Assembly: GCA_044222065.1 (NCBI GenBank)
Contig: JBGAOA010000034.1
Coordinates: 1 to 47,950, forward strand
DNA from: Candidatus Eiseniibacteriota bacterium
GTDB taxonomy: Bacteria > Eisenbacteria > RBG-16-71-46
Direction: 5' to 3'
DNA length: 47,950 bases
Of the stretch, positions 4,943 to 32,713 are shown in pieces. Numbering within the stretch: position 1 is the stretch's first letter; the number at the start of each line of letters is the position of its first letter. The position numbers and the translations under genes were made by a program. Below the pieces are notes generated by a model. That model searched no databases, was not told the DNA's origin, and was given only the letters and a program-made list of their open reading frames with translations.

Positions 4943-5023
4943 GCAGCGATCTCCGGGCGGATGGCGTTCTCGAGGTCGGTCGGCCACGAACGAGGTCGGG
5001 GATTATCGCCGAGGAGCGTGCGG

Positions 5024-5785: not shown

Positions 5786-5909
5786 GCTCCGCGCGGACCC
5801 GGAGCCGGGCGGTCCGCGAAGACCGCACCCGCGAGCTTCCTGCGCGGCCCCGCGTTCAGGCACCGCGGAGCCCCGCGTCTCGATCGGGACGTGACGGCGG
5901 TCCCTCGAC

Positions 5910-9247: not shown

Positions 9248-15322
<6,075 letters not shown>

Positions 15323-16278: not shown

Positions 16279-17157
16279 CTATTCCTCGCGGCGAAGACTG
16301 CGGCGCAGCCGCCTCACGATGCGGTCGATCGTCGTGTAGACCCCGCGCGCCTGGTCGAGACCGAGTTCCTCGGCGATCTGCGGCGCGGACCAGCCGCGCT
16401 CGAAGCGCATTTCGAGGACGGCCCGGTCCTTCGGCGGCAGCTCCGCGAGCGCCTCCTGCAACCGGCCCGCGGTGCGCTTCGCCTCTCGCTCCATCAGATG
16501 GTAGTCCGGGCTGAATGCTCCGGAGCGCTGCTCGTATTCGTCCCGAACGTGGTCGAGGTACTCGAGCAGTCGCCCGGACGACGCGCCGACGGACTGCGCG
16601 TAGAGGTCGTACGCGAGCCGGCGAAGCCATCGGTCGCCGAGCTGGCGCTCGATCTGGCGCAGACCCGCCATGAACCGTTCGATCGTCCAGGGATCGCCGG
16701 GGCGGTCGAGCTCGTCCACGACTTCACCCGCAGAGCGCCCTTCCACGTAGTAGAGGCGGAACAACCGCTGCTCGAGCGGGCTCAGGCGCGCGAGCACGCG
16801 AGCGCCGTGCGCCCGTCCGAAGCGGTGGCGCAGGTGGTCCATGACCGCCGATCGCGTGACCAGCGTCAGCCACGTCGAGAGGGACGCGCGGCCTTCGTAA
16901 GTACGCAGCTTGCCGCGACGGACCGCGGCCAGGACGTCGACGAACAGCGTCTGCACCTCGTCCGGATCGCGCGACCTCAGGTAGCGGCGCGCGATCGCGT
17001 GGATCAGCCCGGAGTACCGGGCGATGAAGGACTCCCAGGCGGCTTCGTCTCCGGCCACGACACGTCGAGCGAGCGCCACGTCTTCCGCGTTTCGTTCGGT
17101 ATCGGAGCCGGACGAACCGGTCACCGCGCGTGCCTGCTCAGGGGCTCGGAAGCTCAT
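16279..17157 (-). CDS. ECF-type RNA polymerase sigma factor, extended (start uncertain)
   Basis: Region 2 (GDEAAWESFIARY...YEGRASLSTWLTLVTRSAVMDHLR) and C-terminal region 4 (LAELPPKDRAVLEMRFERGWSAPQIAEELGL). Confidence 0.88.
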   Translation of the reverse strand: MSFRAPEQARAVTGSSGSDTERNAEDVALARRVVAGDEAAWESFIARYSGLIHAIARRYLRSRDPDEVQTLFVDVLAAVRRGKLRTYEGRASLSTWLTLVTRSAVMDHLRHRFGRAHGARVLARLSPLEQRLFRLYYVEGRSAGEVVDELDRPGDPWTIERFMAGLRQIERQLGDRWLRRLAYDLYAQSVGASSGRLLEYLDHVRDEYEQRSGAFSPDYHLMEREAKRTAGRLQEALAELPPKDRAVLEMRFERGWSAPQIAEELGLDQARGVYTTIDRIVRRLRRSLRREE

Positions 17158-17353
17158 GGATGTCGAGTCGCGGTCACCGGGCAAAGGAATGAGCACCGCC
17201 GGCCCACGGGGGGCCGGCGGCACCGAGGGGTCCCAGCTGTCTGATTGGACGGACGGTCCGCGCGGATTACGAGCCTTCGTCGTTCGCCCGGATGGCGAGC
17301 CGGGCGAGCTGGATTCGCTGGCGTGCCCGCCTCGCGGCAGAGTGTAATGAGGC

Positions 17354-20161
17354 GTGCGACGTTTCCGAAGCGCAATCCTGCTGATCCTCGCGGTGGGCAT
17401 CGGCCTCCTCGCGCGGGCGCCGAGCGCCCCGATCCAGGCCTGGCACGTGCGCCGGCTCGAGCAACTCGTTCCGGAACTCGATCCCGAGGTCGCCCGCCGG
17501 GTCGTCGATCGCGATGACGCGAAGTGGCTGACCTTCGCGCGCTCGATCGGCGTTCGCGGCCTCGCCGACGCCTACCAGGCCGTGATCGTCCGGCGGAACA
17601 CCTCGCCGCCGCGGGAACTCCTGGCGACGAGCACCGAACTCGGTCCGATCGCGTTTCGGATCGCCGACGCGTTCGCGCGCCTCTACGACTTCCGGGCGCC
17701 GCTCGAGGTGGAGAAGCAACTGCTCTCGTTCGACGAGTCCCGCAGGCTCGAACTGATGTCCCTCATGAGCCAGCAGTTCCATCTCATCATGGACCAGCGA
17801 CTGCCGCCGCTCGAGCGGCGCCGGCGCCTCGAGCAGGTCGTCGCGGGCATGGAGGCGCTCGGCGCGTGGCGCTCGGCCCTCCACTCCGAGCACGCGCTCG
17901 CGTCCGTGGACGCCGATCTCGGCGAGCCCGAGCGCCACCGCGCGCACCTCGAGTCCATCCTCGCGCGCGCGCGCGTGCTCGGCGAGCCGTACGTCGAAGC
18001 TCAGCTGCTCGGCGAACTCGGCAGCATTCACGCCGCGGCCGGCGAGGACGACTCGGTGCGCTTGTGCTACGACGAGGCCCTCGCGATCGCGCGCCGGCAC
18101 TCGTTCCTCGACCAGGCCGCGCGCATCCTGCGCTTCGACGCCGGATTCCACGCCGACCGGGGCCGGCTCGCGCTCGCGGCCGACCGGCTCACCGAAATGC
18201 TCCAGCTCTGCGACCTGCCGGAGGCGCGCTCCGCGCGCGTCCGCATGCAGATCGACTACGCGGCGTTCCTCGTTCGCACCGGGTGCTGGGACCTCGCCGC
18301 ACGCGTCCTGCGGCGCCTGCCTCCGCTCTTCCGTCAGTACCCGAGCGAGCGGTCGCGCCGCGACACCGAATCCCACCGGTTCGTCGCCGACCGGTTGCTC
18401 GCGCGGCTCGAGTTCGAGGACGGCGACGCGGAGGCGGGAGATCGCCAGATGCGCGAGCTCGCAACGCGCGTTCCGAGCGGCCGCCCGCGCGCGTGGCGCT
18501 ACGACCTGTTCCTCGACTGGACCGCGGGCCTCGTTTCGGTGGAGCGCTGGACGCGCGCGCTCGAGTTGTGTGAGCACGCGATCGTGTACGCCGACACCAC
18601 GCACGCCCCGGGGCAGGTGTTCCGGTACCGCCGGGCGCTCGCGCTCGAGCGGCTCGGTCGCTTCGACGAGCTCGATGGCGCACTCGTGCAACTCCGCGCG
18701 GACCTCGCCCGGGACTCGCTCGCGACCGACGCGCTCGCGCGCGACGTCGAACTGCTCGAGGTCAGCGAGTGCTACCACCGCGGCCGCACGGCCGAGGCCC
18801 GGGCGCGTCTCGGCGATTGCCAGCGGCGTTTCGAGCGCCGGCTCGCGGGGCGACAGAACGGCATGCAGAACTACCTCGAGGTGGATGAGGCGCGCGCGCT
18901 TCGCGCCGCGTGGCACCGGTACGGCGGACTGGATGCGGCGGCCGGCTACCGGCTCGAGTGCCGCTGGCGTTCGCTGTCGCAGCTGCTGCGGGGCGGGGGC
19001 GACACGCGCCTTCCGCCGCTGGAGTCCGATCTCGCGGGGGGCGCGCCGCCGGTGCTCGGCGACGGGGTCCATCTCGTCTATCACGTGGAGGGCGACCGCA
19101 CGCTGCGATGGACGGCGACCCGATCCGGCGTGCGGCTCGACACGCTCGCGCTGTCCTCGCGCGCGTGCCTCGAGCGCGTCAGGCACGCGCTGTCCGCACT
19201 GCAGACGGAGACGCCGCCGCCCGGCGCGCTGCTCGGGCCCGCGGCGCGCGCGGCGCTCGAGCCGCTCGCGCGCCTGCTGCTGCCCGCGCCGATCGCGCGC
19301 GAGGGCGCGAGCGGCCGGGCCGTCTTCGTCTCGGCCGACGGGCCGCTGCTCGCGCTGCCGTTCGAGGCGCTGCCCTTGCTCGCGACTCCCGGCCAGCCGC
19401 CGCTCGCGGCACTCGACGACGTCGCCTACGTGCACGGCTGGCGCGCGTCTCCGCTGCGCATCGGCGGGCGGCCGGTGATCGTCGCGAACCCCGAGATCCC
19501 GGGCGACCTTCGCCGCCGTTACGCGGCGGCGGGGCCGCTCGAGGCCGTGCCGGCCGAGGTCGCGGCGGCGAAGTCGCGCTGGCCGGAGGCGCGGGTCCTC
19601 GAGGGACGCGCGGCGACCAAGGAGAACCTGTTCGCGACCTGGCCCTCCGCGTCGGTGATCTACCTCGCGAGTCACCACGTGCGCGATCCCGACGCGCCCT
19701 TCCTCGGCTTCGTGCCGCTCGCCGTCCCCGAGGGCGGCGCCTCGAGCGACGCGCTGCTCGAGATCGCCGACGTCCACGGGCTCGACCTGTCCGCGTGCCG
19801 GCTCGTCGTGCTCGCCTCGTGCGCGAGCGGCGCGCCGTACCGGCTCGCGCGCCGGCCGGGTCCGAGCCTCGGCGAGGCGTTTCTCGACTCCGGCGCCGGG
19901 GCCGTGATCGAGAGCCTGTGGGAGGTCCGCGACGCCGAGGCCGGCGAGTTCATGCGCCGCTTCCTCGCCGCGGGTGGCGGCATTCGCGAGGACCTCTCGG
20001 CGTTGCAGTCCGCGCGACGACAGATGATGACGCGCGAACAGGGGTGCGCGCCCAGCGTGTGGGCCGCGTGGTCGGTCCACGTTCGGCTGCCGCGAACGAA
20101 CTCGGAATTCGCGCGTGCGCCGCATTCCGGGGTCTTCGCCATCGCCCCGCGCACGCGCTGA
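17354..20161 (+). CDS. TPR-CHAT (caspase-like, clan CD) domain protein with N-terminal signal/TM segment
   Basis: Helical repeat N-terminal half. CHAT motifs DGPLLALPFEAL, ATKENL, IYLASH (His), LVVLASCASG (Cys), AFLDSGAGAVIESLWEVRD and WAAW. Confidence 0.9.
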   Translation: MRRFRSAILLILAVGIGLLARAPSAPIQAWHVRRLEQLVPELDPEVARRVVDRDDAKWLTFARSIGVRGLADAYQAVIVRRNTSPPRELLATSTELGPIAFRIADAFARLYDFRAPLEVEKQLLSFDESRRLELMSLMSQQFHLIMDQRLPPLERRRRLEQVVAGMEALGAWRSALHSEHALASVDADLGEPERHRAHLESILARARVLGEPYVEAQLLGELGSIHAAAGEDDSVRLCYDEALAIARRHSFLDQAARILRFDAGFHADRGRLALAADRLTEMLQLCDLPEARSARVRMQIDYAAFLVRTGCWDLAARVLRRLPPLFRQYPSERSRRDTESHRFVADRLLARLEFEDGDAEAGDRQMRELATRVPSGRPRAWRYDLFLDWTAGLVSVERWTRALELCEHAIVYADTTHAPGQVFRYRRALALERLGRFDELDGALVQLRADLARDSLATDALARDVELLEVSECYHRGRTAEARARLGDCQRRFERRLAGRQNGMQNYLEVDEARALRAAWHRYGGLDAAAGYRLECRWRSLSQLLRGGGDTRLPPLESDLAGGAPPVLGDGVHLVYHVEGDRTLRWTATRSGVRLDTLALSSRACLERVRHALSALQTETPPPGALLGPAARAALEPLARLLLPAPIAREGASGRAVFVSADGPLLALPFEALPLLATPGQPPLAALDDVAYVHGWRASPLRIGGRPVIVANPEIPGDLRRRYAAAGPLEAVPAEVAAAKSRWPEARVLEGRAATKENLFATWPSASVIYLASHHVRDPDAPFLGFVPLAVPEGGASSDALLEIADVHGLDLSACRLVVLASCASGAPYRLARRPGPSLGEAFLDSGAGAVIESLWEVRDAEAGEFMRRFLAAGGGIREDLSALQSARRQMMTREQGCAPSVWAAWSVHVRLPRTNSEFARAPHSGVFAIAPRTR

Positions 20162-20322
20162 GGGCGCGCGCCGGCCCGATTCCGCACTCGTCGGAACGTC
20201 CCGCCCCGCCCGTCGCGCGCGCTGTCTCCCTGCCCCGGCACCTGCTAGCGTGCCCGGGTTCCCGATGCGCCGCCCGCGTCCTTCGTCGCACGGCGTCCGA
20301 CAACCGTCCCCGGGGGGATCCC

Positions 20323-22233
20323 ATGCCGACCGTTCGCATGCGCTGGCTCGCCGCCACGCTCGCCCTGTTCACGTTCACGACCGCCGCGGGTTCGGCGGGC
20401 GGCACCGAGCGCGCCGACGTTCCCGACCGCCTGAAATGGGATCTGACGGACCTGTTCGCGAGCGACGAGGCCTGGACGCGATCACGCGATGCGCTCCGCG
20501 GGCGGCTCGGAGAGTTCGAGCCGTTCCGCGGGCACCTCGGCGATTCGCCCGACGCGCTCTTCCGCGCGCTCGGCGCGATGATGGATTTCAGCCGCGACCT
20601 GCAGCGCGTGATCACCTACGCGAGCCAGAAGAGCGACGAGGACACGCGCGTCGCGCGCACGCAGGAGATGCGGGCGAGCGCCGAGCAGATCGGCGTCGAC
20701 TTCTCGGCCGCGATCTCGTGGGTGCGTCCCGAACTGATCGCGCTCGGCGCCGACAAGGTGAACGGCTTCGTCGCCGCCGACGCGCGCCTCGCGCCGTTCC
20801 GCCAGTACCTCGCCGACGTGCTGCGCTACGCGCCGCACACGCTCACGCCGGGCGAGGAGCGCATCTCGGCGATGGCCGGCCGGCTCGCTCCGGCGGGCGC
20901 GACGATCCGCGGCATCTTCAACAACGCCGAGCTGCCCTGGCCGACGGTCACGCTCTCGACCGGCGAGAAGGTCCGGCTCGACGACGCGGCGTACACGCAG
21001 CACCGCGCCTCGTCCGTGCGCGCCGATCGCAAGGCGGTGTTCGACGCGTTCTGGACCGCGCACAAGCAGTTCGAGAACACGTACGGCGCGATGCTGAACG
21101 CCGGCATCCAGGGCCACGTGTTCGACAGGGACGTGCACCACTTCGGCAGCTCGCTCGAGGCCGCGCTGTTCGCCAACAACATTCCGACGAGCGTGTACCG
21201 GCAGCTGCTCGCGGACGTGCACGCGAACCTGCCGACGCTTCACCGCTACCTGAAGCTGCGCCAGCGCATGATGGGCCTCGACCAGATCCGCTACGAGGAC
21301 CTGTACGCGCCGATCGTCAGCGAGGTGGACCTGCGCTACACGCCGGAGCAGGCGATGGAACTCACGCTCGCCGCCGTGCAGCCGCTCGGCAAGGCGTACG
21401 TCGACACGCTGCGCACCGGCATGACGAGCGGGTGGATCGACTGGCTGCCGTCCACGGGGAAGCGCTCGGGCGCCTACAGCACCGGCGCGTACGGCGTGCA
21501 CCCGTACCAGCTGCAAAACTTCACGGGTCTCTACGACGAGGTCGGAACGCTCGCGCACGAGTCCGGGCACTCGATGCACACGTACCTCGCGAACCTCACG
21601 CAGCCGTACGCGACGAGCGACTACGCGACGTTCGTCGCCGAAGTGGCGAGCACGCTGAACGAGAACCTGCTGTTCCACTACATGCTCGACCGCACGAAGG
21701 ACAAGCCGACGCGGCTCTACCTGCTCGGCAGCTTCCTCGACAACCTGCGCGGCACGCTGTTCCGCCAGACGATGTTCGCGGAGTACGAACTCGCGATCCA
21801 CGAGGCGGTCGAGAAGGGCGAGCAGCTGAGCGGCGAGAACCTGACGAAGCGCTACCTGGACCTCGTGCGCACCTACTACGGGCACGATCAGGGCGTGTGC
21901 CCGGTGGACGAGCTGTACGGAGTGGAGTGGAGCTACATCCCGCACTTCTTCTACGACTTCTACGTCTACCAGTACGCGACGAGCATCGTGGCCTCGACCG
22001 CGATCGCGAACGGCATCCGCGACGAGGCGGCCGCGGTGGCGAAGAGCGGGAAGAAGAACGCGCCGCTGCCGAAGCGCGACGCGTACCTCAAGATGCTGTC
22101 GTCCGGTTCGAGCCAGTACCCGATCGACCTGCTGAAGGGCGCCGGCGTGGACATGACGACCTCGGCGCCGTTCAACGCGGCGATCCGCGAGATGAATCTC
22201 GTGATGGACGAGATGGAGAAGCTGCTCAAGTAG
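20323..22233 (+). CDS. pepF: Oligoendopeptidase F (M3B) with signal peptide
   Basis: KWDLTDLF, GKRSGAYS, TLAHESGHSMH (HExxH), AEVASTLNE, FRQTMFAEYE and HFFYDFYVYQYATS. Confidence 0.93.
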   Translation: MPTVRMRWLAATLALFTFTTAAGSAGGTERADVPDRLKWDLTDLFASDEAWTRSRDALRGRLGEFEPFRGHLGDSPDALFRALGAMMDFSRDLQRVITYASQKSDEDTRVARTQEMRASAEQIGVDFSAAISWVRPELIALGADKVNGFVAADARLAPFRQYLADVLRYAPHTLTPGEERISAMAGRLAPAGATIRGIFNNAELPWPTVTLSTGEKVRLDDAAYTQHRASSVRADRKAVFDAFWTAHKQFENTYGAMLNAGIQGHVFDRDVHHFGSSLEAALFANNIPTSVYRQLLADVHANLPTLHRYLKLRQRMMGLDQIRYEDLYAPIVSEVDLRYTPEQAMELTLAAVQPLGKAYVDTLRTGMTSGWIDWLPSTGKRSGAYSTGAYGVHPYQLQNFTGLYDEVGTLAHESGHSMHTYLANLTQPYATSDYATFVAEVASTLNENLLFHYMLDRTKDKPTRLYLLGSFLDNLRGTLFRQTMFAEYELAIHEAVEKGEQLSGENLTKRYLDLVRTYYGHDQGVCPVDELYGVEWSYIPHFFYDFYVYQYATSIVASTAIANGIRDEAAAVAKSGKKNAPLPKRDAYLKMLSSGSSQYPIDLLKGAGVDMTTSAPFNAAIREMNLVMDEMEKLLK

Positions 22234-22616
22234 CGGTCCGGTCCGGGGCGACGCCGGGCGCGCCGCCCCCTGCCGGGCGAGCGCGTCCGGTCGAGTGCGG
22301 CGGAAACACGTCGCGCGGCGGCCCGAACCGTCAGTTCCGCTGACAGAATGGCGGCGGACTACCACGTCTCGGTGCCTCGCGCGGCGAGCCCGGCGCGCGC
22401 TCCCGCCGCTCGGCGACGAAATTCCTCTCGGCGGTTCACTTCGCCTCAACGTCGTACGCCAATCGCGGGCAGCGGGTTGAGGCGTGGTTTGGTGTGACTC
22501 GACCGCTCCGGTCGCGCCGTGCGAGCGCGCGGAGCGCTTTCGGCATCGCGCGGGCACCGCCGCTGCTACGAATGCCTCCCAACTCTGCGCGTTCGGCGCG
22601 GAGCCCGGGAGACTCC

Positions 22617-23453
22617 ATGCGGCACCGACCCGCATCCTCGACTCGCTCGCTCCACCCAATTCCCGTCCGCGCCGTCCTCGCGGCGCTGCTTTGTTCGTGC
22701 GCGCTGAGCCTCACCCTGCGCGCCCAGGAATCGCCGTCCCCCGCCGCGTCCTCCGCCGACTCGATCGCCGCCGTCGAGAGCGTCGCGGACTCGGCCGCGC
22801 AGGATTCGACGGGCGCCGCCGAGGTCACCGAGGAAGCTCCCTCCGGTGACGCCACGACGCCTCCCGCGCAGGTCTCGAAGTCGTTCGGCCACTGGGAGAC
22901 GGGCAAGAACCTGTTCGAGACCACCTGCCAGCCCTGTCACGGCCCCGTGGCCGAGGGCAACGAATCCATCGGTGCGCCGGCGCTCAACCGGCAGGAGCCC
23001 TGGTACCTGCTCGTCCAGCTCCGGAAGTTCCGCGCCGGGGTGCGGGGCGCGAAGGAGGACGACGTCGGCGGCCAGATGATGGCGCCGATGGCGATGTCGC
23101 TGCCCGACGAACAGTCGCTCCTCGACGTGGCGGTCTACGTCGCGAGCCTCGAAGGTCCTCCGCCCGCGCGCACGCTGCGCGGCGACCTCGCCGCCGGTGA
23201 GAAGACGTTCCGGACGATCTGCACGCCGTGCCACGGTCCGAACGGCATGGGCCGCCCGGAGATCCGCACGCCCGCGCTCTACGGGCAAGCGGACTGGTAC
23301 ATCGCGACCCAGCTCCGGAAGTTCCGCCGCGGGTTGCGCGGATACCACGACGACGACATCTCTGGCATGCAGATGCGCGGGATGGCGACGGCCCTCGCTT
23401 CCGATCGCGCGATCGTGAACGTCGCGTCCTACATCGCGAGCCTCGCGAAGTGA
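22617..23453 (+). CDS. Diheme cytochrome c (c4/c553-like), exported
   Basis: GGAG then ATG 22617, signal peptide, acidic linker. CQPCH and CTPCH are each followed by PALxxQxxWY..QLRKFR and a Met-rich axial-ligand region. Confidence 0.92.
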   Translation: MRHRPASSTRSLHPIPVRAVLAALLCSCALSLTLRAQESPSPAASSADSIAAVESVADSAAQDSTGAAEVTEEAPSGDATTPPAQVSKSFGHWETGKNLFETTCQPCHGPVAEGNESIGAPALNRQEPWYLLVQLRKFRAGVRGAKEDDVGGQMMAPMAMSLPDEQSLLDVAVYVASLEGPPPARTLRGDLAAGEKTFRTICTPCHGPNGMGRPEIRTPALYGQADWYIATQLRKFRRGLRGYHDDDISGMQMRGMATALASDRAIVNVASYIASLAK

Positions 23454-24208
23454 CTCATGACGTCCGACTTCGGATTCGCGTCGGCCTCGGTGCGGTGCTC
23501 GCCGCCGTCGTGGCGCTGCCGGCGCTCGTCGCACCGGTCGCAGGGCAGTGGCCCGGCGGCTCCACGATTCCCGAGACGTTCCACGACCTCACGCATCCCG
23601 CGCGGATCTCGCCCATGTCGGGAATGATCTCGAACTACGGTCAGGCCTGCGTCTACTGCCACGCGCCGCACGGCGGCGGCGGCGAGCGACCGCTGTGGAA
23701 TCGGCGGCTCCCGAACGGCCCGTATCGAATGTACGAAGGCCCGCTCGACATGCTCGCCGATCCGCAACCGACCGGAGTCTCGCGCCTCTGCCTGTCGTGC
23801 CACGACGGCACGATCGGGCTCGACGACGTGCAGGTGCGTCCGATCGCCTACAGCGGACCGGGGCCGCGGCGCGAAACGATCGAGCGCTGCGCGACCGACT
23901 GCCACAACGGCGGCGACCCCGAGGCGGGCCTCAACTGGGAGAACGTCTGGTTCCGGCCCGACGACCTGCGCAAGCAGCACCCGATCTCGCTCGTCTACGA
24001 CGCCTCGCGCGACGCGGGGTTCAACCCGGCCGGCGCCGTGCTCGCCGCCGGACTGGTGCTCGAGGACGGCCGGATCCAGTGCGCGACGTGTCACGAGCCG
24101 CACAGCGAGCAGTACCGCCCGTTCCTGCGCATTCCGAACACGAACGGGAGCCTGTGCCTCGTGTGTCATCGCACGACGCCGTCGCGCTCGACCGCCCACT
24201 TCTGGTGA
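23450..24208 (+). CDS. OmcE-like multiheme cytochrome c (4 CxxCH plus one CxxxCH)
   Basis: GTGA overlap with the upstream stop; signal peptide. HDLT, CVYCHAPH, PLWNR, CLSCHDG, CATDCH, DLRKQHPI, CATCHEPH and PFLR...SLCLVCH. Confidence 0.88.
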   Translation: MTHDVRLRIRVGLGAVLAAVVALPALVAPVAGQWPGGSTIPETFHDLTHPARISPMSGMISNYGQACVYCHAPHGGGGERPLWNRRLPNGPYRMYEGPLDMLADPQPTGVSRLCLSCHDGTIGLDDVQVRPIAYSGPGPRRETIERCATDCHNGGDPEAGLNWENVWFRPDDLRKQHPISLVYDASRDAGFNPAGAVLAAGLVLEDGRIQCATCHEPHSEQYRPFLRIPNTNGSLCLVCHRTTPSRSTAHFW

Positions 24209-24212
24209 CGAC

Positions 24213-25421
24213 GTGAACGCTCCGATTCCCCCGCGCTTCCGTGCCGTTCCGCCGCTCGTCCTGCTCGCGCTCGGCGCCGCGCTGTCCGCGGGCGCGGCGC
24301 GTGCACCCGAGGCGCCGCTGCTCGTCTGGCCTCCGCCGCCGGACAGCGCTCGCATCCGCTGGGCGGGCGCGTTCGACCACGGCGAGGGCGCGCGCGCGGG
24401 CGTGTTCGAGTCGCTCAAGCGTTTCGTGACCGGCGCCGGGCCGCGCGCGGAAGAGCGGCTCGTGCGACCCACCGACGTGTACGCCGAGGACAGCGCCTAC
24501 GTGTACGTGACCGACGCCGCGCAGGGCCGGATCCTCGTGCGCGACCGGAACCGGCGTGCGTTGCGGACGCTCGCCGTTCCGGCGGGGGCCGCTCCGGCGC
24601 GCCCGATGGGCATCGGCGGCGACGGCCGCGGGCGGATCTACGTGACGGATCCGCCGAACCGCCGCGTGGTCGTGCTCGAGCGCGACGGACGTTTCGTCCG
24701 CGCCTTCGGCGGTCGCGGCGTGCTGCTCAATCCCGTGGACGTCGCGGTGGACACCGCGGCGGGCCTCGCGTGGGTCGCGGACAGCCACCTGCACCAGGTG
24801 CTCGCGTTCGATTCGGAAGGGCGCTGCGTGCGAGCGCTCGGTCTCGCGAACGGCGATGCGAACGCGAAGCCCGTCGAACACGAGACGCCGGAGACGCCCG
24901 AGGAGCGCTCGCTCGCCGAGGTGCACCGCGCGGCGGCGGGCTCGCGCGACGTGCGCGAGAACCGTGGCGCCGGGCCGGGCGAGTTCCTGTTCCCGTGCGG
25001 CGTCGCCGTCGCCGCCGACGGGACGCTGTTCGTGAGCGACGGGCTCAACGGCCGCGTGCAGGTGTTCGCGCGCGACGGCGCCTTCCGACGCGAGTTCGGC
25101 CACCTCGGCGACGTGCCGGGCACGTTCGCGCGGCCGAAGGGCATCTCGCTCGACCGCGACGGCAACGCCTACGTCGTGGATGCCGCGTTCAACAACGTCC
25201 AGATGTTCGACCCCGAAGGACGGCTGCTGCTCGCGTTCGGCGCGTTCGGCAGCGGCCCCGGGGAGCTGTGGCTGCCGCTCGGCGTGTGGGTGGATCGCGA
25301 CGACCGCATCTACGTCGCCGACCGCTACAACGGCCGGGTGCAGGAGTTCACGAGGCTCGGAGCGGGCGCTCGGCCCGTTTCCGGCGCGGATCGCGGCGCA
25401 GGAGCGCGCGAGTCCCGATGA
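24213..25421 (+). CDS. NHL-repeat beta-propeller protein, exported
   Basis: Signal peptide, WPPPPDSARIRW, repeated PxxxAxDxxGxxYVxDxxNxRVQxF blades. Confidence 0.92.
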   Translation: MNAPIPPRFRAVPPLVLLALGAALSAGAARAPEAPLLVWPPPPDSARIRWAGAFDHGEGARAGVFESLKRFVTGAGPRAEERLVRPTDVYAEDSAYVYVTDAAQGRILVRDRNRRALRTLAVPAGAAPARPMGIGGDGRGRIYVTDPPNRRVVVLERDGRFVRAFGGRGVLLNPVDVAVDTAAGLAWVADSHLHQVLAFDSEGRCVRALGLANGDANAKPVEHETPETPEERSLAEVHRAAAGSRDVRENRGAGPGEFLFPCGVAVAADGTLFVSDGLNGRVQVFARDGAFRREFGHLGDVPGTFARPKGISLDRDGNAYVVDAAFNNVQMFDPEGRLLLAFGAFGSGPGELWLPLGVWVDRDDRIYVADRYNGRVQEFTRLGAGARPVSGADRGAGARESR

Positions 25422-25432
25422 AAGGAGGAGAC

Positions 25433-26119
25433 ATGCGTTCGCTTCACGTCATCCGAGTCGCGTGCGCGGTGGTGAGCGTGCTCGCGGCGATCGCGGTTCC
25501 GGTCTCGGCGCAGGCGCCGGGAGCCTGGCCGAACGGCACGTCGGTCGTCGAGACGCTGCACAACTTGTCGTACGCCGCGTCCTCGGATCGCTACGGTCCC
25601 GGAGCGCTCCGCAACTACGGCGAAGTGTGCGTCTACTGCCACACGCCGCACGGCGGACAGGCGAGCGCGCCGCTCTGGAATCGGAACTTCTCGACCGCGT
25701 CCTACCAGATGTACGACGCGAACCACAGCTCCACGATCAACATGACCGTGGATCCGCAGCCGACGGGCGTCTCGCTCGCGTGCCTCTCGTGTCACGACGG
25801 CACGGTCGGTCTCGACGTCATCGTCAACACTCCGAACAACTACACGGGCGGCCCGGCGGTCGGGACGCGCATGCCGTCGAACATCCTCCCGAATCTCGGC
25901 ACCGACCTGCGGAACGATCATCCGGTCTCGGTGACGTACGACCCGACCGCGGATCCGTTCTTCCGCACGGCGGCGTCGGTTCAGGCGGCGGGGCTGCAGC
26001 TCTACACGGGCAAGGTGCAGTGTGGCAGCTGTCACAATCCGCACACCGCGGCGAATCGACCGTTCCTCAGGATCTCGAACGCGGGCAGCAGTCTGTGCCT
26101 CACCTGCCACATCAAGTAG
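25433..26119 (+). CDS. omcE: OmcE-family tetraheme cytochrome c (candidate nanowire subunit)
   Basis: AGGAGG RBS, signal peptide. HNLS, CVYCHTPH, PLWNR, CLSCHDG, NLGTDLRNDHPV, CGSCHNPH and PFLRISNAGSSLCLTCHIK follow the motif order I recall for Geobacter OmcE. Confidence 0.85.
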   Translation: MRSLHVIRVACAVVSVLAAIAVPVSAQAPGAWPNGTSVVETLHNLSYAASSDRYGPGALRNYGEVCVYCHTPHGGQASAPLWNRNFSTASYQMYDANHSSTINMTVDPQPTGVSLACLSCHDGTVGLDVIVNTPNNYTGGPAVGTRMPSNILPNLGTDLRNDHPVSVTYDPTADPFFRTAASVQAAGLQLYTGKVQCGSCHNPHTAANRPFLRISNAGSSLCLTCHIK

Positions 26120-26120
26120 C

Positions 26121-27032
26121 GTGCGACGCCTCGCCGCACTGATCGTCCTCGGCGCGCTGCTCGCGGGCTGCGGGAGCGTGGTCCGCGCGTTCCTCGACGT
26201 GCCCGCGCCGAAGCCGGCCGCCACGGTGCCGGCGGCGGCGCACGTCGTCGTGCGCGAGGACTCGATCGTCGCGCGGCCTCTGCTCGAGACGACGCTCGAT
26301 CCGGACAGCGTGCTCGCGCTGCTGCCGCGCGACTGGATCGGGCACGCCGACTGGGTGGCCGCGCTCCAGAAGGGCCTGATCCGCCCGCGTCCGGCGATCG
26401 GCGCGCGCTTCGAGGACGGACCGGCGCCGTTCGGATTCGACTTCTACTTCGCCGGCAAGGACTCGTCGTTCGATGCGTTCTTCCCGCACTCGGTCCACTC
26501 GCAGATCATCGCCTGCAATCACTGCCACGGCCGGATCTTCCGCTACCGGAACATGCGTTTCACGATGGAGGACCTGCTCGCGGGGCGCTACTGCGGCGAG
26601 TGCCACAGCAAGGTGTCGTTCCCGGTCGTGTCCGGCTGCGATCGCTGCCATCCGCGCATCAAGCTCCCGGCCCGGCGCACCGAAGCCCGCCTGCTCGGCA
26701 CGGTGCAGATGGCGCGCGTGACGGACGGCAGCGGCATGGCGCCGAACACTCCGGACGCCGATCTGCCGCCGGCGCGCTTCCCGCACTGGGTGCACCGCAT
26801 CCGCTATCAGTGCCGCGTGTGCCACGTGCAGATCTTCGAGCCGCGCGCCGGCGCGAACCGCATGACGATGAAGGACATCTCCGAAGGCCGCGCGTGCGGG
26901 CGCTGTCACGACGGCACGACCGCGTTCCGCGCCGGATTCGGAAACTGCCAGCGATGCCACGTGGCGGGACCTCCGCCCGCGCCGGTGGACACGACCGGGG
27001 TGGATTCGCTGCTGCTCCGGGTGCGGGGATGA
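26121..27032 (+). CDS. Lipoprotein hexaheme cytochrome (two c7-type triheme domains)
   Basis: Lipobox LLAG-C. FPHSVH..CNHCH..CGECH..CDRCH and FPHWVH..CRVCH..CGRCH..CQRCH. Confidence 0.92.
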   Translation: MRRLAALIVLGALLAGCGSVVRAFLDVPAPKPAATVPAAAHVVVREDSIVARPLLETTLDPDSVLALLPRDWIGHADWVAALQKGLIRPRPAIGARFEDGPAPFGFDFYFAGKDSSFDAFFPHSVHSQIIACNHCHGRIFRYRNMRFTMEDLLAGRYCGECHSKVSFPVVSGCDRCHPRIKLPARRTEARLLGTVQMARVTDGSGMAPNTPDADLPPARFPHWVHRIRYQCRVCHVQIFEPRAGANRMTMKDISEGRACGRCHDGTTAFRAGFGNCQRCHVAGPPPAPVDTTGVDSLLLRVRG

Positions 27033-28972
27033 CACGGCGGCGGTGCGCGGCCGCGCTCGCGATCGCCGCGGCGTGCGCGTGCGGCGGCGCCTCCGCCGAG
27101 CCGGTCGGACTGCTCCGCGTCGGCAACGGCGGCGAGGCGGGCGTTCGCTGGGAATGCGCGAACGGTCGCTCGGCCGGGCGCCCGGGCGTGAGCGAGACGA
27201 ACGTGCGCGCGTGGACCGCCGCGTCGCTGGAGGGGCGTCTCGCGAGCCGCCGATGGCTGACGTACGCGTGGGTCGCGCGACCGAGCGTGGTGCGGAGCGA
27301 CGGGAAACTGAACCTCGCTTCGTCCACGACCGAGGAATTCGCGCACGACCTCACGCTCGTCTCGCGGCCCGCACCGTGGATCGGGGCCCAGGCGACCGCC
27401 TCGCGCGACCGGATCGTCGCCGATCGCGGGCCCGACGCGGCGCGCGAGTCGCGCTTCCGGCGCGAGGAGGCGCGCGGCGACCTGCGCCTGCCATTTGCGA
27501 GCCTCGGTGCGATCGGGCGTCGCGAGCGATCCGACGAGCGCTGGACGTCCTCGGCGCTCGCGCCCGAACTCGAGCGCCACGTCGAGCGCTCGAGCGCCGA
27601 GACGTTCCTCGAGTCGAGCCGCATGCGGCTCTCGCACCGCAACGCGCGCGAGCGCGTGCCCGAGAACGCCACGGACGTCGAGACGCGCCAGACGAGCTTC
27701 GACCACACGCTGCCGTGGGGACACGGCAGTCAGCTGCGCACACGGCTCGAATGGGCGGACCAGTCGGGCAACCGGCTCACGTTCGTGGACCGCTCCGCGC
27801 AGGAGAACCTGCGCGTGCGTCACGCTCCGTGGCTCACGAGCGACTACGCTGCTCCGGCGCACGCACAGCCGGCTCGTCGCGGGCGAGGGCACCGATCTCT
27901 CGCACGCCTACGAGATCGCGGCGCGCACGGAGGGCTGGGCGCTCGGTCTCGGCGCGAGCTTGCGTGACGATCGCTCGCCGGGGCGCGCGGGCCGCGCGCT
28001 CTCGTACGGGCCGCGCGTCGGCATCCAGCGCGGATTCGCGAACGGCGTGCGCGTTGCCGCGGACGCCGCGCTGCGCGCCGAGCGCGAGCGCCGCACGGGC
28101 GCGGCGGACGCGCGCCTCGCGGTGCCCGACGAACCGCACGACGTCCCGGCGACGCGCCAGTTCGCACTCGACCTCGAAGGCGTGGACTCGGCGACCGTCG
28201 TCGTGCGCGACGCGCAGGGCTCGCCGCGCTTCGTCGCCGGCCCGGACTACACGATCGTGCGTTCGGGCGAGCGGACCTTCGTCGAGATCCCGCCCGGCAG
28301 CTCGATCGCCGTCGGCGACGTGCTCCGCATCGGCTACGAGGCCGTGCCCCCGGGAACGCCGCGCCGCAGCGGATCGAGCGCCGAGTTCGGCGTCGGCGCG
28401 GACTGGCGCGGCCTGTCGCTGCGCTTCGAGGACCGCCGGCGCTCCTCGCGCGACCGGCCGGTCGATCGCGGCGCCGCCGCACTCGGCTCGAGCGAGCGCG
28501 CGTGGCTCGCGTCGTGGCTCGCGACGCGCGACGCGCCCCCGTGCGCTGGGACGCCGGCGCGTCGCTGCGCGAGCGCAGGATCGAATCCCGCCGTTCGCGC
28601 ACGTCCGACCTGCACGCGGGCCTCACGTGGCGCTGGTCGAACGCGCTCACCGGTTCGCTCGACGCCTCGAGCGCCGCGGCGAGCGAGGCCGCGTCCGAAC
28701 TGACGTCGCGCGTCTACCGCACGAGGCTCGACTGGCTGGCGGGACCGTGCGCGCTCGGCCTCCGCGCGGAGTACTCGAACTTCCGCCGCGCGGGCTCGGC
28801 CGAGACTCGCCAGCGATCGCTCGGCGGCGACGCATCCCTGCGCTGCGGCCGGCTCGACGCGGCGCTGCGGCTCGACCTCGGCTCGCGCGACGGCGCCGAC
28901 GATTCCGAGCCGTGGCATCGTTCCCGCCGGGCATCCGACCGTGCCGGTGGGTCGCTCGTCCGACGGTTCTAG
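27029..28972 (+). CDS. Probable outer-membrane beta-barrel (porin) of the cytochrome cluster; frameshifted near 27848 and 28537
   Basis: ATGA overlap with the upstream gene and a signal peptide. Alternating amphipathic strands run across ORFs 26600.., 27495.. and 28502..; the chain ends in ...SLVRRF (terminal Phe). Confidence 0.65.
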
Positions 28973-29108
28973 TCCGCGACGATTCCGCCCTCCGGCCGTG
29001 GCAACCCTTCGCGCCTCGCGGCCGTCGAACCTCGGGGAGCCCGCCCCGCGCGAATCGCCGCGAATGCGGCTCCGCGACCGTGCCGGTGAGCGAAGGGAAG
29101 GAGGCGAC

Positions 29109-30498
29109 GTGAGACTCGCGATGCGCGCGCTGCCGTTGGCCGCCGCGCTCCCGGCCGTGTTGTCGCTCGCAGCCGGTGCGCGCGAGCGCGCCCGTCTTCG
29201 TGATCGAGCGCGAGGGCGCGGGCTTCCGCGTGTCGCGCGACACGCTCGAGGCGAACCACGTCGCCGTGTACCGCCGCGATCCCGCGCACGGCGTCGTGGA
29301 CGTCGTGCTGCCCGTCGGTCCCGGCCGCTCCGCCGCGCTGTTCCGGGCCGCGGACGCCGAGATGCTCGTGCTGCGCCTCGTAGGCGACAGCCTCACGTGG
29401 TCCGTGCGGCGCGCCGACGGTTCGATGACGCCGATGCCGGCGCGGGCGATCGCCGACCTCGGCGCCGAGGAGACGCGAGTGTCGGTGAGCGCGGGGGAGT
29501 CGCGCGCGGCGTTCGTGATCTCGGGCTGGGACGTGGTCGTGCCCGACACGATCGGTCCGGCGCGGAACATGTTCGCGGGCCAGCTGCCGGCGGAACTCCT
29601 GCGCGAGGCGGTCGTCGTCGAGACCGACACGCAGACGCTCGCGCCGGCGGTGCGCGCGTGCGGGGCCGCCGCGCTCGAGCGCGACCGCTACCTGTTCGTG
29701 AAGTGCGGCCGGGCGGACGGCGTCGAGGGCTGGTTCCTCGTGGACCTCGCGGCCTCGTCCTCGCTCGTCGCGAAGTCGTTCGTCCCCGAGTCGCAGCCGA
29801 TCGAACCGATGTCGGCGATCGAGCATTCGGCGGGCGGAGTCCGGCGGCTGCCGTACAGCCCCGAAGGCGCCACGGGATCGGTGCAGGGCGTGCTCGGCGC
29901 GAGCGCGTTCCCGTCGCTCCGTTTCGGAGACGTCGTCGTCGAGCGCGCGGAACTCACGGTGCTCGACCGGCTCCCGGACGCGTTCGGCCGCCCGGTCGCG
30001 GGCATCCTCGGCATGGACGTGCTGCGCGGCTGCGAACGCATCGCGCTCGAGTTCCCGCGCTCGGGCGCGCCGCGGCTCGCGCTCGGCGCCGCGCCGTCCG
30101 GCGCGCGCCCCGCGGCGGTCACGCCGTTCGCGTGGGTCGCCTCGCACCTGCTCGTCGCGGGCGAGATCGGCGGGCGGCGCGCGCGCTGGATCCTCGACTC
30201 GGGCGCGCCGCGCACCGTCGTGGACTCGGTCGGCGCTCCGGCGTTCGAGGCGCACGCGGCAGCGCCGATCGGCGGACTCGGCGGCCGGAAGCTCGGCGCG
30301 CTGCGGGCGCGGGCCGCGTCGGCGCGCGCGGGCGCGCTCGATCTCGGCGGGCTCGAGTGCGACGTCGCGCCGCTCGACGTGTTCGCGTCGCTGCGCCAGC
30401 CGGGCCTCGCGCTCGGCCTGCTCGGGCTCGCGGATCTCGCGCGCTGCGCGCGGATCGAGGTGGATTTCCGCGCGCGCGTGATCCGCTGGTTCCGCTGA
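29109..30498 (+). CDS. Exported retropepsin-like aspartyl protease, two domains; signal peptide frameshifted near 29175
   Basis: AGGAGG then GTG 29109 with a signal peptide in a different frame from ORF 29176-30498. Motifs FLVDLAA...GILGMDVL and WILDSGAPRTVV...GLLGLADL...EVDFRARVI. Confidence 0.8.
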
Positions 30499-30568
30499 AT
30501 CGGCGCGGAACGGCGACGGCCGCCCGCGGCATCGCGGGCGGCCGTGCGCGCGTCCGATCGGATGCGCG

Positions 30569-31042
30569 TCAGCCGAGGTGCGCCTCGACGAACCAGAGAT
30601 CCTTGTCCACCTCGCGCGAGATCTCGGTCGCGAGGTCGGCGCTGTCCGCGTCACCGAGGCTCGCGAACGCGTCGATCGCCGCGCGCACGTTCGCGCCAAA
30701 CGCGGCGAGCGCGAGCGACAGCCGCTCGACGTGTCCCTTCTCGGCGACGAGGTCGAGCGGGTAGGGCTCGAGCCGCGTCGCGCGCGCCGCGGCCTGCAGC
30801 GTGCCGTGCGGCTGGCCGCCGAGCGCCGCGATGCGTTCCGCGATCGAATCGCTCCATTCGCCGCCGTGCGCGTACACGTCGTCGAACAGCTTGTGGAGGG
30901 CGATGAAATTCGGACCGCGCACGGCCCAGTGCGCCTGCTTCGCCTGCATCGTGATGTCGGCGGCGTCCGCGAGCAGCTGATTCAAGTCCGCGCTGACCTG
31001 CACGCGGATCTTCTCGGCGAGATCGTTGTGGGTGTGGGGCAT
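30569..31042 (-). CDS. dps: DNA starvation/stationary phase protection protein Dps
   Basis: KQAHWAVRGPNFIALHKLFD, DSIAERIAALGG and DKDLWFVEAH. Confidence 0.95.
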   Translation of the reverse strand: MPHTHNDLAEKIRVQVSADLNQLLADAADITMQAKQAHWAVRGPNFIALHKLFDDVYAHGGEWSDSIAERIAALGGQPHGTLQAAARATRLEPYPLDLVAEKGHVERLSLALAAFGANVRAAIDAFASLGDADSADLATEISREVDKDLWFVEAHLG

Positions 31043-31166: not shown

Positions 31167-32594
31167 TCAGCGCACCCGCACGAGCCGCGCGTACGCGCGC
31201 GCTCCGCCGGCTTCGAGCGTCACGAAGTAGATCCCCGGAGCGGCGGATCTTCCCGACGCGTCGCGCCCGTCCCACGTGAAGTCGTGCGCACCGGCGTCGA
31301 ACGCGCCGCGCGCGGGTTCGGCAACGCGCCGGCCCTGCGCGTCCACGATCGCGAGCCGCGCCTCGCCGGCCCGCTCGAGCGTGAAGCCGAGCCGCACCGC
31401 GCCGCGCGCGGGGTTGGGCGAGGGGCTCGCGAGCGCGAGCGATCCCGTTTTCGCGGACTCGACCGCGACCGGGTCCACGACCGGGATCAGCAGCACCGCG
31501 TGCGCGATGCCGCCCGTCGCGGCGGTCGCGGCGATCCAGCCGTCGGCGTTCACGTCGGACGTGCCGAACACGGTCCAGCCGGCGCCGGAGGCGTCGAGCC
31601 GCGCGTTCAGGTCCCAGAGTCCGTCGGCGTTCCACATCACGACGCGTTCCTCGAGCGTCGGCCACGGGAACACGCTCGTATCGATGAGCCGTGAGAACCC
31701 GAACACGGTCGCGCCCGACGGGTCCACGAGCGTCGCCACGCCCGCGTTGTGGCCGGGCCAGATCGGGAGTTCGGCCGGCACGTGCGCGGCGTCGCGCGAC
31801 CAGCGCGTCGGACGGTCGAGCCCGAACGGGTACATCGTGTAGCCGACGGCGTCCCCGAGTTCGTTCATCGTGCCCGGCATGCTCTGGTCCGAGTTCGCGA
31901 GCGGCTCGAGCAGCACGGGCGTGTGGGCGGCGTCGGCTTCCCAAATCGTCGCGCGGTCGCCGGGATTGAGTCCCGTGCGGCCGAAGACGCGGCCCGTTTC
32001 CGTAATGGACTGCGCCTCGGTCCAGGCCGTGAGCGGATCGCCCGACGGATGCAGCGGGAGGATCGTCCGATCGAAGCGTCCGGGCTGGTTCGGGCGTTCG
32101 ATCCAGATCGCCGCGTCCCAGTTGCCGCCGCCGCCGCTCTTCGTGAGGAAGCCGCACACGACGCCGGCGTCGTTCACGTCGAACGCGTAGATGTTCGCGT
32201 TCCCGTCCGCGCCGGACTCGATGTCGACGACCTGGCCGTTCCGCCAGAGAACCGCTCGCGGCTGAGGATCGGCGGTGTTGCTGTGGCCGGCGATCCAGCC
32301 GCTCGCGTTCATGCCGTAGGCGGAGCTCCAGTCGAAGCCCGGCAATCCGCCGAGGTCGGTGACCTGCAGCACGACTCCTTCGGCGGAGACGTCCCAGCGG
32401 GTGGCGTGGCCGCCGAACGTGGCGGGAACCTCGGAGCGTCCGAGCACGGCGCCGCCGACGCCGAAGCGGGCCGCGGTGGAGGCGGTGGCGCCGGGCGCGA
32501 AGCCCAGGTCCACGAGCCGGTAGAGGGGAGCGGACGCGGCGGGCGTGGCAGTGAGGAGCGCGAGGACGCAGGCGAGCGCGAGCGGACGCGACAT
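31167..32594 (-). CDS. Secreted HAF-like extracellular repeat protein with FlgD-like tail
   Basis: Signal peptide then PLYRLVDLG. Repeats of SAYGMNASGWIAG / AFDVNDAGVVCG, DLN..L....W, HAVLLIP. C-terminal PSPNP...WDGRD...GIYFVTL. Confidence 0.85.
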   Translation of the reverse strand: MSRPLALACVLALLTATPAASAPLYRLVDLGFAPGATASTAARFGVGGAVLGRSEVPATFGGHATRWDVSAEGVVLQVTDLGGLPGFDWSSAYGMNASGWIAGHSNTADPQPRAVLWRNGQVVDIESGADGNANIYAFDVNDAGVVCGFLTKSGGGGNWDAAIWIERPNQPGRFDRTILPLHPSGDPLTAWTEAQSITETGRVFGRTGLNPGDRATIWEADAAHTPVLLEPLANSDQSMPGTMNELGDAVGYTMYPFGLDRPTRWSRDAAHVPAELPIWPGHNAGVATLVDPSGATVFGFSRLIDTSVFPWPTLEERVVMWNADGLWDLNARLDASGAGWTVFGTSDVNADGWIAATAATGGIAHAVLLIPVVDPVAVESAKTGSLALASPSPNPARGAVRLGFTLERAGEARLAIVDAQGRRVAEPARGAFDAGAHDFTWDGRDASGRSAAPGIYFVTLEAGGARAYARLVRVR

Positions 32595-32713
32595 GACGGG
32601 GCCTCCGAACGGTGGGGCCCGCCGAGCGAGGGACGGGCGGTTGGGGATTGCGTTCGGAGAGGTGGGGAGCTCGCCGGAAGAAATACCCGCCGGACCGTGG
32701 CGGCGCCGCGACC

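Follow-up and report, generated by a model that had tools for sequence, protein, structure and literature searches.

A compact six-gene relative of the omcE and uet clusters in Candidatus Eisenbacteria, a probable outer-membrane multihaem electron-transfer module

The six genes at positions 22617–28972 of a 47,950-nucleotide (nt) stretch of DNA from a Candidatus Eiseniibacteriota bacterium (contig JBGAOA010000034.1 of assembly GCA_044222065.1; the whole stretch is hereafter called the window) encode multihaem cytochromes, a beta-propeller, and a predicted outer-membrane barrel, and they raise the question of whether they form a route for electrons across the outer membrane, whether part of that route polymerises into a wire, and in which direction electrons would pass. 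In terms of gene content, the cluster belongs with the published omcE and uet clusters as a compact variant, sharing the core of both and adding a cytochrome c4 gene. Judging from homology and structural models, it probably encodes an OmcE/Uet-type outer-membrane multihaem module that moves electrons between the periplasm and extracellular solids or partners. The genes are as follows.

G1, 22617–23453, plus strand: dihaem cytochrome of the c4 type
G2, 23450–24208, plus strand: pentahaem OmcE-like cytochrome, with four CxxCH motifs, CATDCH within a loop insertion, and a conserved His in the C-terminal tail
G3, 24213–25421, plus strand: secreted NHL-repeat beta-propeller
G4, 25433–26119, plus strand: tetrahaem OmcE homologue, candidate wire subunit
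G5, 26121–27032, plus strand: hexahaem lipoprotein with two c7-type trihaem domains, candidate periplasmic relay
G6, 27029–28972, plus strand: predicted outer-membrane beta-barrel gene, ~640 amino acids (aa), with two frameshifts in this assembly

G1 and G2 overlap in GTGA at 23450, G5 and G6 overlap in ATGA at 27029, and the gaps between the other genes are 4 nt (G2–G3), 11 nt (G3–G4), and 1 nt (G4–G5). The translations contain two haem motifs in G1, four CxxCH plus CATDCH in G2, four in G4, and six in G5, giving 16 CxxCH and one CxxxCH in total. An earlier note on this DNA, made from the sequence alone, had described the same junctions, which were reproduced exactly, and the same haem count, which was recovered in the translations. 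Its family labels also held, with two Cytochrom_C domains in G1 (the c4-type label being borne out by the match to the structure 1etp), Paired_CXXCH/OmcE-like proteins in G2 and G4, NHL repeats in G3, and two nanowire_3heme/c7 stretches behind an LLAGC lipobox in G5. The OmcE-like label proved to denote true OmcE relatives, by sequence in both G2 and G4 and also by predicted fold in G2. Its description of the last gene stood in part: the beta-barrel family agrees with the model of an intact orthologue, whereas the single frame at 27029–28972 did not hold, the note having missed two frameshifts.

G4 aligned end to end with the OmcE filament subunit of Geobacter sulfurreducens (7tfs_A; expectation value (E) 4.6e-29; G4 residues 21–228 against OmcE residues 13–232) and also matched OmcE of D. 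soudanensis (9yuq_N; E 2.7e-25). G2 matched the same two proteins at E 2.5e-17, in two stretches, and E 1.1e-16, respectively. In an alignment of 50 OmcE-like sequences, drawn from the window and related loci, C67/C70/H71, H74, C114/C117/H118, H177, C211/C214/H215, H218, and C236/C239/H240 were invariant, and the N-terminal His (H45), which we take to be the ligand that bridges subunits in OmcE-type proteins, was kept in at least 90% of the sequences. The conserved four CxxCH motifs and four further His ligands are the same set as that named for OmcE in the available part of Petersen et al. (2026; PMC13712944). As judged from full-length homology and this ligand set, G4 and G2 are members of the OmcE family; DmsE/MtrA-type models in NCBIfam scored far under their cut-offs on both.

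G2 and G4 differ consistently from each other. A fifth haem motif was present in the same inserted loop in all 14 G2 sequences (the window and 13 loci), as CxxCH in eight and as CxxxCH in six, and all 14 had a C-terminal tail with a conserved His. This tail was missing from all 15 G4 sequences, each of which ended in ...CHIK. Since the fifth motif and the tail His are kept in every G2 sequence, G2 is a pentahaem protein with five candidate distal His residues, and its CxxxCH motif is not a stray. In the phylogenetic tree, the G2 sequences formed one clade (100/100) that was nested with the G4 sequences (87/92), and five motifs also occurred in many distant homologues. The tetrahaem and pentahaem paralogues are conserved as a pair. 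The predicted model of G2 (predicted local distance difference test (pLDDT) 66.6; predicted template modelling score (pTM) 0.64) gave one significant Foldseek match, which was 7TFS (E 8.4e-6).

G1, G3, and G5 could also be assigned to families. G1 matched Pfam Cytochrom_C in two stretches (E 1.2e-20), corresponding to two class I cytochrome c domains, and aligned with cytochrome c4 structures (1etp_A, E 1.4e-16 over residues 102–276; 6q2u, E 2.6e-14); CcoP chains were also matched. Its N-terminus consists of a hydrophobic segment and then a low-complexity linker of ~55 residues ahead of the haem domains, and this linker was seen only in the window and in the related loci L005–L007. G3 matched Pfam NHL (E 2.5e-22) and the DUF5128 6-bladed propeller (E 8.3e-15); a conserved lipobox Cys was absent from the G3 orthologues, and G3 is not clearly a lipoprotein. 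G5 matched TIGR04257 nanowire_3heme in two stretches behind its LLAGC lipobox (E 1.1e-35; 121.7 bits against a cut-off of 40) and the dodecahaem cytochrome GSU1996 (PDB 3ov0_A; E 1.2e-46). Among 15 G5 orthologues, the six CxxCH motifs were invariant, and the sequences that extend as far as the lipobox position had a Cys there. The G5 stop overlaps the start of the barrel gene, and this gene for a candidate lipoprotein relay would be translationally coupled to G6.

The relatives of G6 consist of one open frame of 629–643 aa ending in ..RRF. No Pfam or NCBIfam model matched any of the three pieces of G6 in the window, and no NCBIfam model matched the intact orthologues either, so the beta-barrel identity of the window gene comes only through an intact orthologue. 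The model of the L007 orthologue, built from an alignment of 13 intact orthologues (pLDDT 85.2), has ~29 long strands (18 + 11) and a small domain at residues 377–438. A Foldseek search with this model returned 258 matches at E ≤ 1e-3; among the matches listed, all were outer-membrane barrels except an S-layer complex, and MtrB had the highest template modelling score (TM-score) among the barrel matches listed (0.36). On this structural prediction, the G6 family is a large beta-barrel of the outer membrane.

The barrel family is also large. It was found in 14 of 15 Eisenbacteria and Gemmatimonadota loci, the fifteenth locus being incomplete, and its profile also detected barrels beside OmcE-like and NHL genes in three Planctomycetota loci (E 1e-22 to 1e-26). 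At E ≤ 0.001 the profile matched 1418 cluster representatives, a number that fell to 211 at E ≤ 1e-30; most were ~640 residues long. Structural look-alikes in the Atlas were unnamed proteins of ~650 residues from Pseudomonadota, Planctomycetota, Bacteroidota, and Thermodesulfobacteriota, and an Atlas structure search gave TM values of 0.81/0.82 to a cluster commonest in Thermodesulfobacteriota; both are leads only. Conservation in G6 is highest in a small beta domain that interrupts the barrel after strand 18 and before strand 19 (L007 residues 372–444; window ~28100–28330); this inserted domain, which may be a plug, a cap, or a docking site, alone matches the Gammaproteobacteria locus L033. 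Two labels attached to the family were set aside. A UniRef label, 'TIGR03016 fam...', on one G6 relative was not reproduced, with none of five orthologues matching such an NCBIfam model at E ≤ 1, and a 'tail_tube_6XGR' match to the conserved middle domain (E 0.0023 and 0.00056) was far under the cut-off and was taken as chance.

In terms of distribution, the nearest loci were in metagenome-assembled genomes (MAGs) of Candidatus Eisenbacteria, with G4 identities of 76–94%, followed by Gemmatimonadota (54–70%), in keeping with the earlier note's impression of a host unlike Geobacter. All six genes occurred in the same order in each of the seven Eisenbacteria-type loci (L005–L011), and the Gemmatimonadota loci had the order G3-G2-G4-G5-G6, without c4. 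Among 76 related loci, an NHL gene lay within 1 kilobase of an OmcE-like gene in 56, at least two OmcE-like genes were present in 44, and a c7-like gene was present in 23; these counts are lower bounds because many of the loci are incomplete. OmcE-like/NHL pairs were found in loci labelled Gallionella, Thiobacillus, Magnetococcales, and Nitrospinota, and also in Thiohalomonadales; cultured carriers of such pairs include Piscinibacter aquaticus KACC 15278 (L037), Ramlibacter montanisoli B156 (L069), and Motiliproteus sediminis HS6 (L070). Within the phylum sample, a G4 homologue (E ≤ 1e-10) was detected in 16 of 201 genomes; the corresponding numbers were 10 of 121 when only genomes of good quality are counted, 9 of 82 for genera, and 10 of 86 within its own family. 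The OmcE-type module is thus patchy and accessory in this phylum. The sequencing runs that contained the stretch were activated-sludge, bioreactor, sludge, and biofilm metagenomes, together with four runs without an organism label.

Two types of published cluster resemble this one. According to the available part of Petersen et al. (2026; PMC13712944), the omcE cluster in its minimal form in Desulfuromonadia encodes, besides OmcE and a large barrel, two multihaem cytochromes and two lipoproteins with beta-propellers; OmcE homologues with such neighbours are reported there from five phyla, with neither Eisenbacteria nor Gemmatimonadota named in that part, and uncultured bacteria are already noted to have 5-haem OmcE-like proteins whose extra haem is predicted to be exposed. 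The cluster studied here shares with it an OmcE-family tetrahaem protein with four CxxCH motifs and four distal His, a beta-propeller gene, further multihaem cytochromes, and a large barrel. It differs in having one propeller rather than two, a conserved tetrahaem/pentahaem pair, and a c4 gene in first position, and in lacking the glycosylation block. The uet cluster (uetABCDEFGHIJ) of Candidatus Tenderia electrophaga/Tenderiales and some Gallionella is described, in the available parts of its sources (bioRxiv 10.1101/2022.05.06.490989; Hoover et al. 2023, PMC10734462), as encoding a tetrahaem cytochrome, three c7 trihaem cytochromes, two NHL proteins, and a 28-strand barrel, together with a prolyl isomerase, a cupredoxin, and an undecahaem cytochrome; its proposed role is electron uptake that supplies cbb3 oxidases. 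The two clusters share the combination of a tetrahaem cytochrome, c7 trihaem domains, an NHL protein, and a barrel of ~28 strands, a likeness drawn from the published description and not from the Uet sequences. In contrast to uet, the present cluster is without the undecahaem UetJ, the prolyl isomerase UetB, and the cupredoxin UetF, and its c7 domains are fused in one lipoprotein; none of the six genes had 11 haem motifs or, in Pfam and NCBIfam searches, a rotamase or cupredoxin domain. The suggestion of a new type of cluster accordingly did not survive comparison with the omcE and uet clusters and with the five-haem OmcE-like proteins already in print. No description of such a cluster in Eisenbacteria or Gemmatimonadota was found in the literature searched, which did not extend to the supplements of the cited papers.

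Other known systems share single features with the cluster. The osc (omcS-companion) cluster of G. sulfurreducens (Shen et al. 2025, as cited by other authors) follows the same idea, in that the gene for a filament cytochrome is accompanied by genes for a beta-propeller-like protein and for channel-like outer-membrane proteins by which the wire is mounted or secreted. With MtrCAB/porin–cytochrome complexes (PDB 6R2Q), the cluster shares an outer-membrane barrel gene adjoining a periplasmic multihaem cytochrome gene; it differs in having no MtrB_PioB (PF11854) match and no decahaem MtrA or MtrC homologue, and the barrel of the modelled G6 orthologue would have ~29 strands, as against the 26 given for MtrB in the available text of bioRxiv 10.1101/2022.05.06.490989. 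A Thermodesulfobacteriota MAG (locus L080, 1428–10443) encodes c7, NHL, and two OmcE-like proteins together with a SurA-like isomerase, an unannotated 687-aa protein, and a dihaem cytochrome c, so that a dihaem partner is not unique to Eisenbacteria.

The host genome (4.2 Mb, 94% complete) offers several candidate partners for the module. It encodes two haem-copper oxidases, one of which is a cbb3 CcoN (682 bits against a cut-off of 583), and also cytochrome c maturation genes. On contig C111 (locus L081, 1792–4564, with 4569–8118), a second gene for a hexahaem protein with two c7 domains is followed by genes for an NrfC-like 4Fe-4S protein and an NrfD-like membrane subunit, and then by genes for a histidine kinase, whose periplasmic part bears CxxCH-like motifs, and for a response regulator. 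By its gene content, this c7/NrfC/NrfD complex is a candidate quinone-linked partner of the module. The genome contains 25 frames with at least three and up to 42 CxxCH motifs, and the organism is unusually rich in multihaem cytochromes; very large frames with 42, 34, 20, 19, 18, and 13 CxxCH motifs are located on contigs C89 (47283–50441), C85 (17942–22517), and C35 (28660–55713). The earlier note had considered the module self-contained. With so many multihaem frames, a separate c7-hexahaem/NrfC/NrfD complex, and candidate partners for both directions of flow, it is not.

The window copy of G6 requires separate consideration. The frame that opens at 27029 stops at 27967, and the coding sequence uses frame A over 27029–27850, frame B over ~27851–28527, and frame A again to 28972. 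A tblastn search with the L007 and L005 G6 proteins on the window likewise placed the conserved protein in the first frame as far as 27847, in the +1 frame between 27852 and ~28500, and back in the first frame by ~28600. The two sites are as follows.

27848–27850, plus strand: first frameshift site, with one extra base relative to L005–L007 in the DNA alignment
28521–28534, plus strand: second frameshift site, lying in a 7-nt direct repeat (GCGACGC x2) and longer by five bases than in other public contigs

Logan contigs of four public runs (X1, X2, X4, and X5; activated-sludge and bioreactor metagenomes from four studies) were compared with the window over 22400–29200, and the contigs that fitted only in part numbered 249 of 266 in X1 and 248 of 264 in X4. 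The single contig listed across 27850 (X1 record 7, 27533–28471, with four other differing letters) had one base fewer there, and contigs of X1, X2, and X5 were short by five bases at 28527 or 28534. The two differences sum to six bases and put the whole of G6 in one frame. The shorter contig forms at both sites mean that in-frame forms of G6 exist in nature. The 7-nt repeat at 28521–28534 is likely to be a hot spot for slippage or misassembly. We lean towards an assembly fault or a minority allele as the source of the broken frame, and regard a truly inactive copy as the less likely of the two explanations. The L006 orthologue from another Eisenbacteria MAG also changes frame near its C-terminal third (10865–10885), in a contig whose name suggests a long-read assembly.

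From the homology of the parts, the conservation of the gene set, and the predicted barrel and OmcE folds, we infer where the proteins would be located, whether they might polymerise, and which way electrons might move. G6 would form a wide outer-membrane barrel of ~28–30 strands, and G5, lipid-anchored and with two c7 domains, would serve as the periplasmic relay. On the outside, tetrahaem G4 and pentahaem G2 would form an extracellular haem chain of the OmcE family, in which G4 would be the likely repeating subunit and G2 would add a fifth, probably more exposed, haem. The G3 propeller may act as an assembly or scaffold helper, and the c4 cytochrome G1 would couple the module to the respiratory chain. 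Polymerisation into a filament is plausible since G4 keeps all the OmcE ligands, including the N-terminal His, and on these sequence features we place it only a little below an even chance.

The direction of flow is a separate matter. G1 resembles the c4 cytochromes that act as donors to cbb3 oxidases (PDB 1ETP, 6Q2U, 8SMR, and 8SNH), and the genome encodes CcoN; G1 differs from them in its N-terminal hydrophobic segment and long low-complexity linker and in its position in an OmcE-type operon. As oxidase donors of high potential, c4 cytochromes would be unable to reduce bis-His haems of low potential. Given the midpoint potential of -145 mV stated for the OmcE bundle in the available part of Petersen et al. 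(2026; PMC13712944), electrons would pass from the wire to c4 and hardly back, so that uptake is favoured whenever G1 is used. The c4-type G1 and the genomic cbb3 oxidase together make inward flow, at which the earlier note had hinted, plausible, and we judge the case for flow inward to the cbb3 oxidase, when c4 takes part, to be nearly but not quite balanced with the case against it. We give about the same likelihood to an outward flow by way of a quinol-linked complex, and the module may be reversible. As no RuBisCO was found, inward flow would supplement heterotrophy and not drive autotrophy. A more elaborate version, which we regard as improbable, is a two-component wire in which G4 would be the insulated repeat and G2 the end piece, at the barrel base or at the tip, with an exposed haem contact; such a wire would run inward from Fe(II) minerals, reduced humics, or partner cells via the c7 lipoprotein and the tethered c4 to the cbb3 oxidase of an aerobic heterotroph.

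Several observations weigh against an OmcE/Uet-type module of this kind. The G2 model was folded without haems and is of low confidence (pLDDT 66.6), and the OmcE fold was predicted for G2, the placement of G4 resting on its sequence. The six-gene cluster is without the SurA-like prolyl isomerase, the second propeller, and the undecahaem cytochrome of the published clusters. The G6 profile showed no significant similarity to the 687-aa protein of the Thermodesulfobacteriota locus L080 (hhalign probability 1.2%), and barrel homology to that cluster's barrel is therefore not supported by sequence. In the window, the barrel gene is broken by two frameshifts of +1 nt and +5 nt relative to its relatives, and at the second site the shorter form accounted for a depth of 4.2 of 16.3 in X1 and 0 of 56.1 in X4; with so low a share of the shorter form, the window's form of G6 may also exist in nature. 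The RuBisCO large subunit was not found in the 94% complete genome, which is no proof of absence but makes it unlikely that iron is oxidised autotrophically by way of RuBisCO. Even for Geobacter, according to the part of the literature available, it is a matter of dispute whether OmcE filaments are physiologically needed.

Four other explanations compete with all or part of this reading. In one of them, the cluster encodes a porin–cytochrome conduit without a filament, in which G5 would sit in G6 as MtrA does in MtrB, G2 and G4 would be single docked surface cytochromes, and electrons would cross the outer membrane only and not travel micrometres. Such a conduit is at odds with G4, which keeps every OmcE feature checked, including the presumably subunit-bridging N-terminal His. 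It also has to be set against the two OmcE homologues that were solved as filaments (7tfs and 9yuq), as given in the available part of PMC13712944. Yet the ATGA overlap joins G5 directly to the barrel gene, and c7 genes adjoin the barrel gene in uet clusters too (bioRxiv 10.1101/2022.05.06.490989, available part); MtrB is the closest by TM-score of the barrel matches listed, and the conservation of two different OmcE paralogues as a pair fits a fixed complex. We regard the conduit without a filament as a real alternative, though clearly on the minority side. A different possibility is that the module is dead in this strain, G6 being a pseudogene with two frameshifts and the cytochromes leftovers. 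The frame breaks at ~27850 and ~28527, the truncated 312-aa G6 product on record in a public protein library, and the contigs of X4 and X5 whose ends or starts coincide with the first site, perhaps the sign of a real variant, all point in that direction. On the other hand, the five other genes are intact and close to those of relatives (G4 identity 92–94%), in-frame shorter forms exist in the one contig listed across the first site and in contigs of three runs at the second, and indels summing to six bases suit an assembly join between strain variants, so we consider a dead module rather unlikely.

The module might instead serve outward extracellular respiration. Under anoxia, menaquinol would feed the NrfCD-type complex with its c7 hexahaem protein, from which electrons would pass to G5, the barrel, and G2/G4 and on to Fe(III), Mn(IV), humics, or partner cells, leaving c4 as a side branch. 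The genes for the two-c7-domain hexahaem, NrfC-like, and NrfD-like proteins on contig C111 and the 25 frames with 3–42 CxxCH motifs are consistent with this scheme, as are the sludge, bioreactor, and biofilm origins of the labelled runs and, from the available part of PMC13712944, the low potential of the OmcE bundle and the service of Desulfuromonadia OmcE systems in metal and electrode reducers. It is opposed by the position of a c4-type gene, overlapping G2, at the head of the operon, by the frequency of OmcE-like/NHL pairs in loci labelled Gallionella, Thiobacillus, Magnetococcales, and Nitrospinota, and by the proposal of uptake for the related uet cluster (bioRxiv 10.1101/2022.05.06.490989, available part). 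We hold this particular outward scheme to be possible, with appreciably less than an even chance. Very improbable, finally, is a periplasmic redox system apart from extracellular electron transfer, for example, a detoxification or soluble-substrate oxidoreductase chain. NHL propellers and c7 or c4 cytochromes occur in other contexts too, but Pfam and NCBIfam searches found no catalytic subunit encoded among the six genes, the large barrel gene is conserved and translationally coupled, and G2 and G4 are specifically related to a solved extracellular filament protein.

An OmcE/Uet-type module in this lineage would have several implications. With this cluster, the published list of phyla that have OmcE-type kits is extended by Eisenbacteria and Gemmatimonadota, both of them frequent in metagenomes from wastewater, soil, and groundwater, and its very compact six-gene form would suit heterologous expression. 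The cluster pairs a four-haem with a five-haem OmcE paralogue; no candidate for an anchor or tip was found in omcE operons according to the available part of Petersen et al. (2026; PMC13712944). The operon-encoded c4 offers a way to test whether such wires can carry electrons inward to oxygen. If they do, electron uptake at the surface could be a supplementary income for ordinary heterotrophs that live aerobically in soils and in treatment plants dosed with iron, and if the two-component inward wire exists, it would be an 'electron-uptake nanowire' outside the classical iron oxidisers.

With regard to the surroundings of the cluster, searches for regulatory signals found no sigma-70 promoter and one terminator, with no excess over shuffled sequence, and an Rfam scan of 20000–31000 gave no match. 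A sigma-54-like element (GGCAC-N5-CTGCT, 22553–22567, plus strand), 50 nt 5' of the G1 start, was the sole match in the window to a relaxed pattern written after the site had been seen. It was rejected, as a fair consensus with at most two mismatches gave 5 matches against 8.5 expected and a similar element occurred in only two of nine related upstream regions. The flanking genes, which encode CHAT/TPR, PepF, aspartyl protease, and Dps proteins, are unrelated to the cluster. Upstream of the PepF gene, at 16279–20161, are genes for an extracytoplasmic function (ECF)-type sigma factor (minus strand) and a 935-aa CHAT/TPR protein (plus strand), and no link between them and the cluster was seen. 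Downstream, a 501-aa protein with six CxxCH motifs is encoded at 35381–36886 (plus strand); its C-terminal part weakly matches FlgD and type IX secretion proteins, far under the cut-off, and the protein may be a hexahaem cytochrome of the cell surface with a different export route. The large secreted protein encoded nearby, at 31167–33200 (minus strand), carries a C-terminal FlgD immunoglobulin-like domain (E 1.2e-11), the same kind of domain as that in the 501-aa protein.

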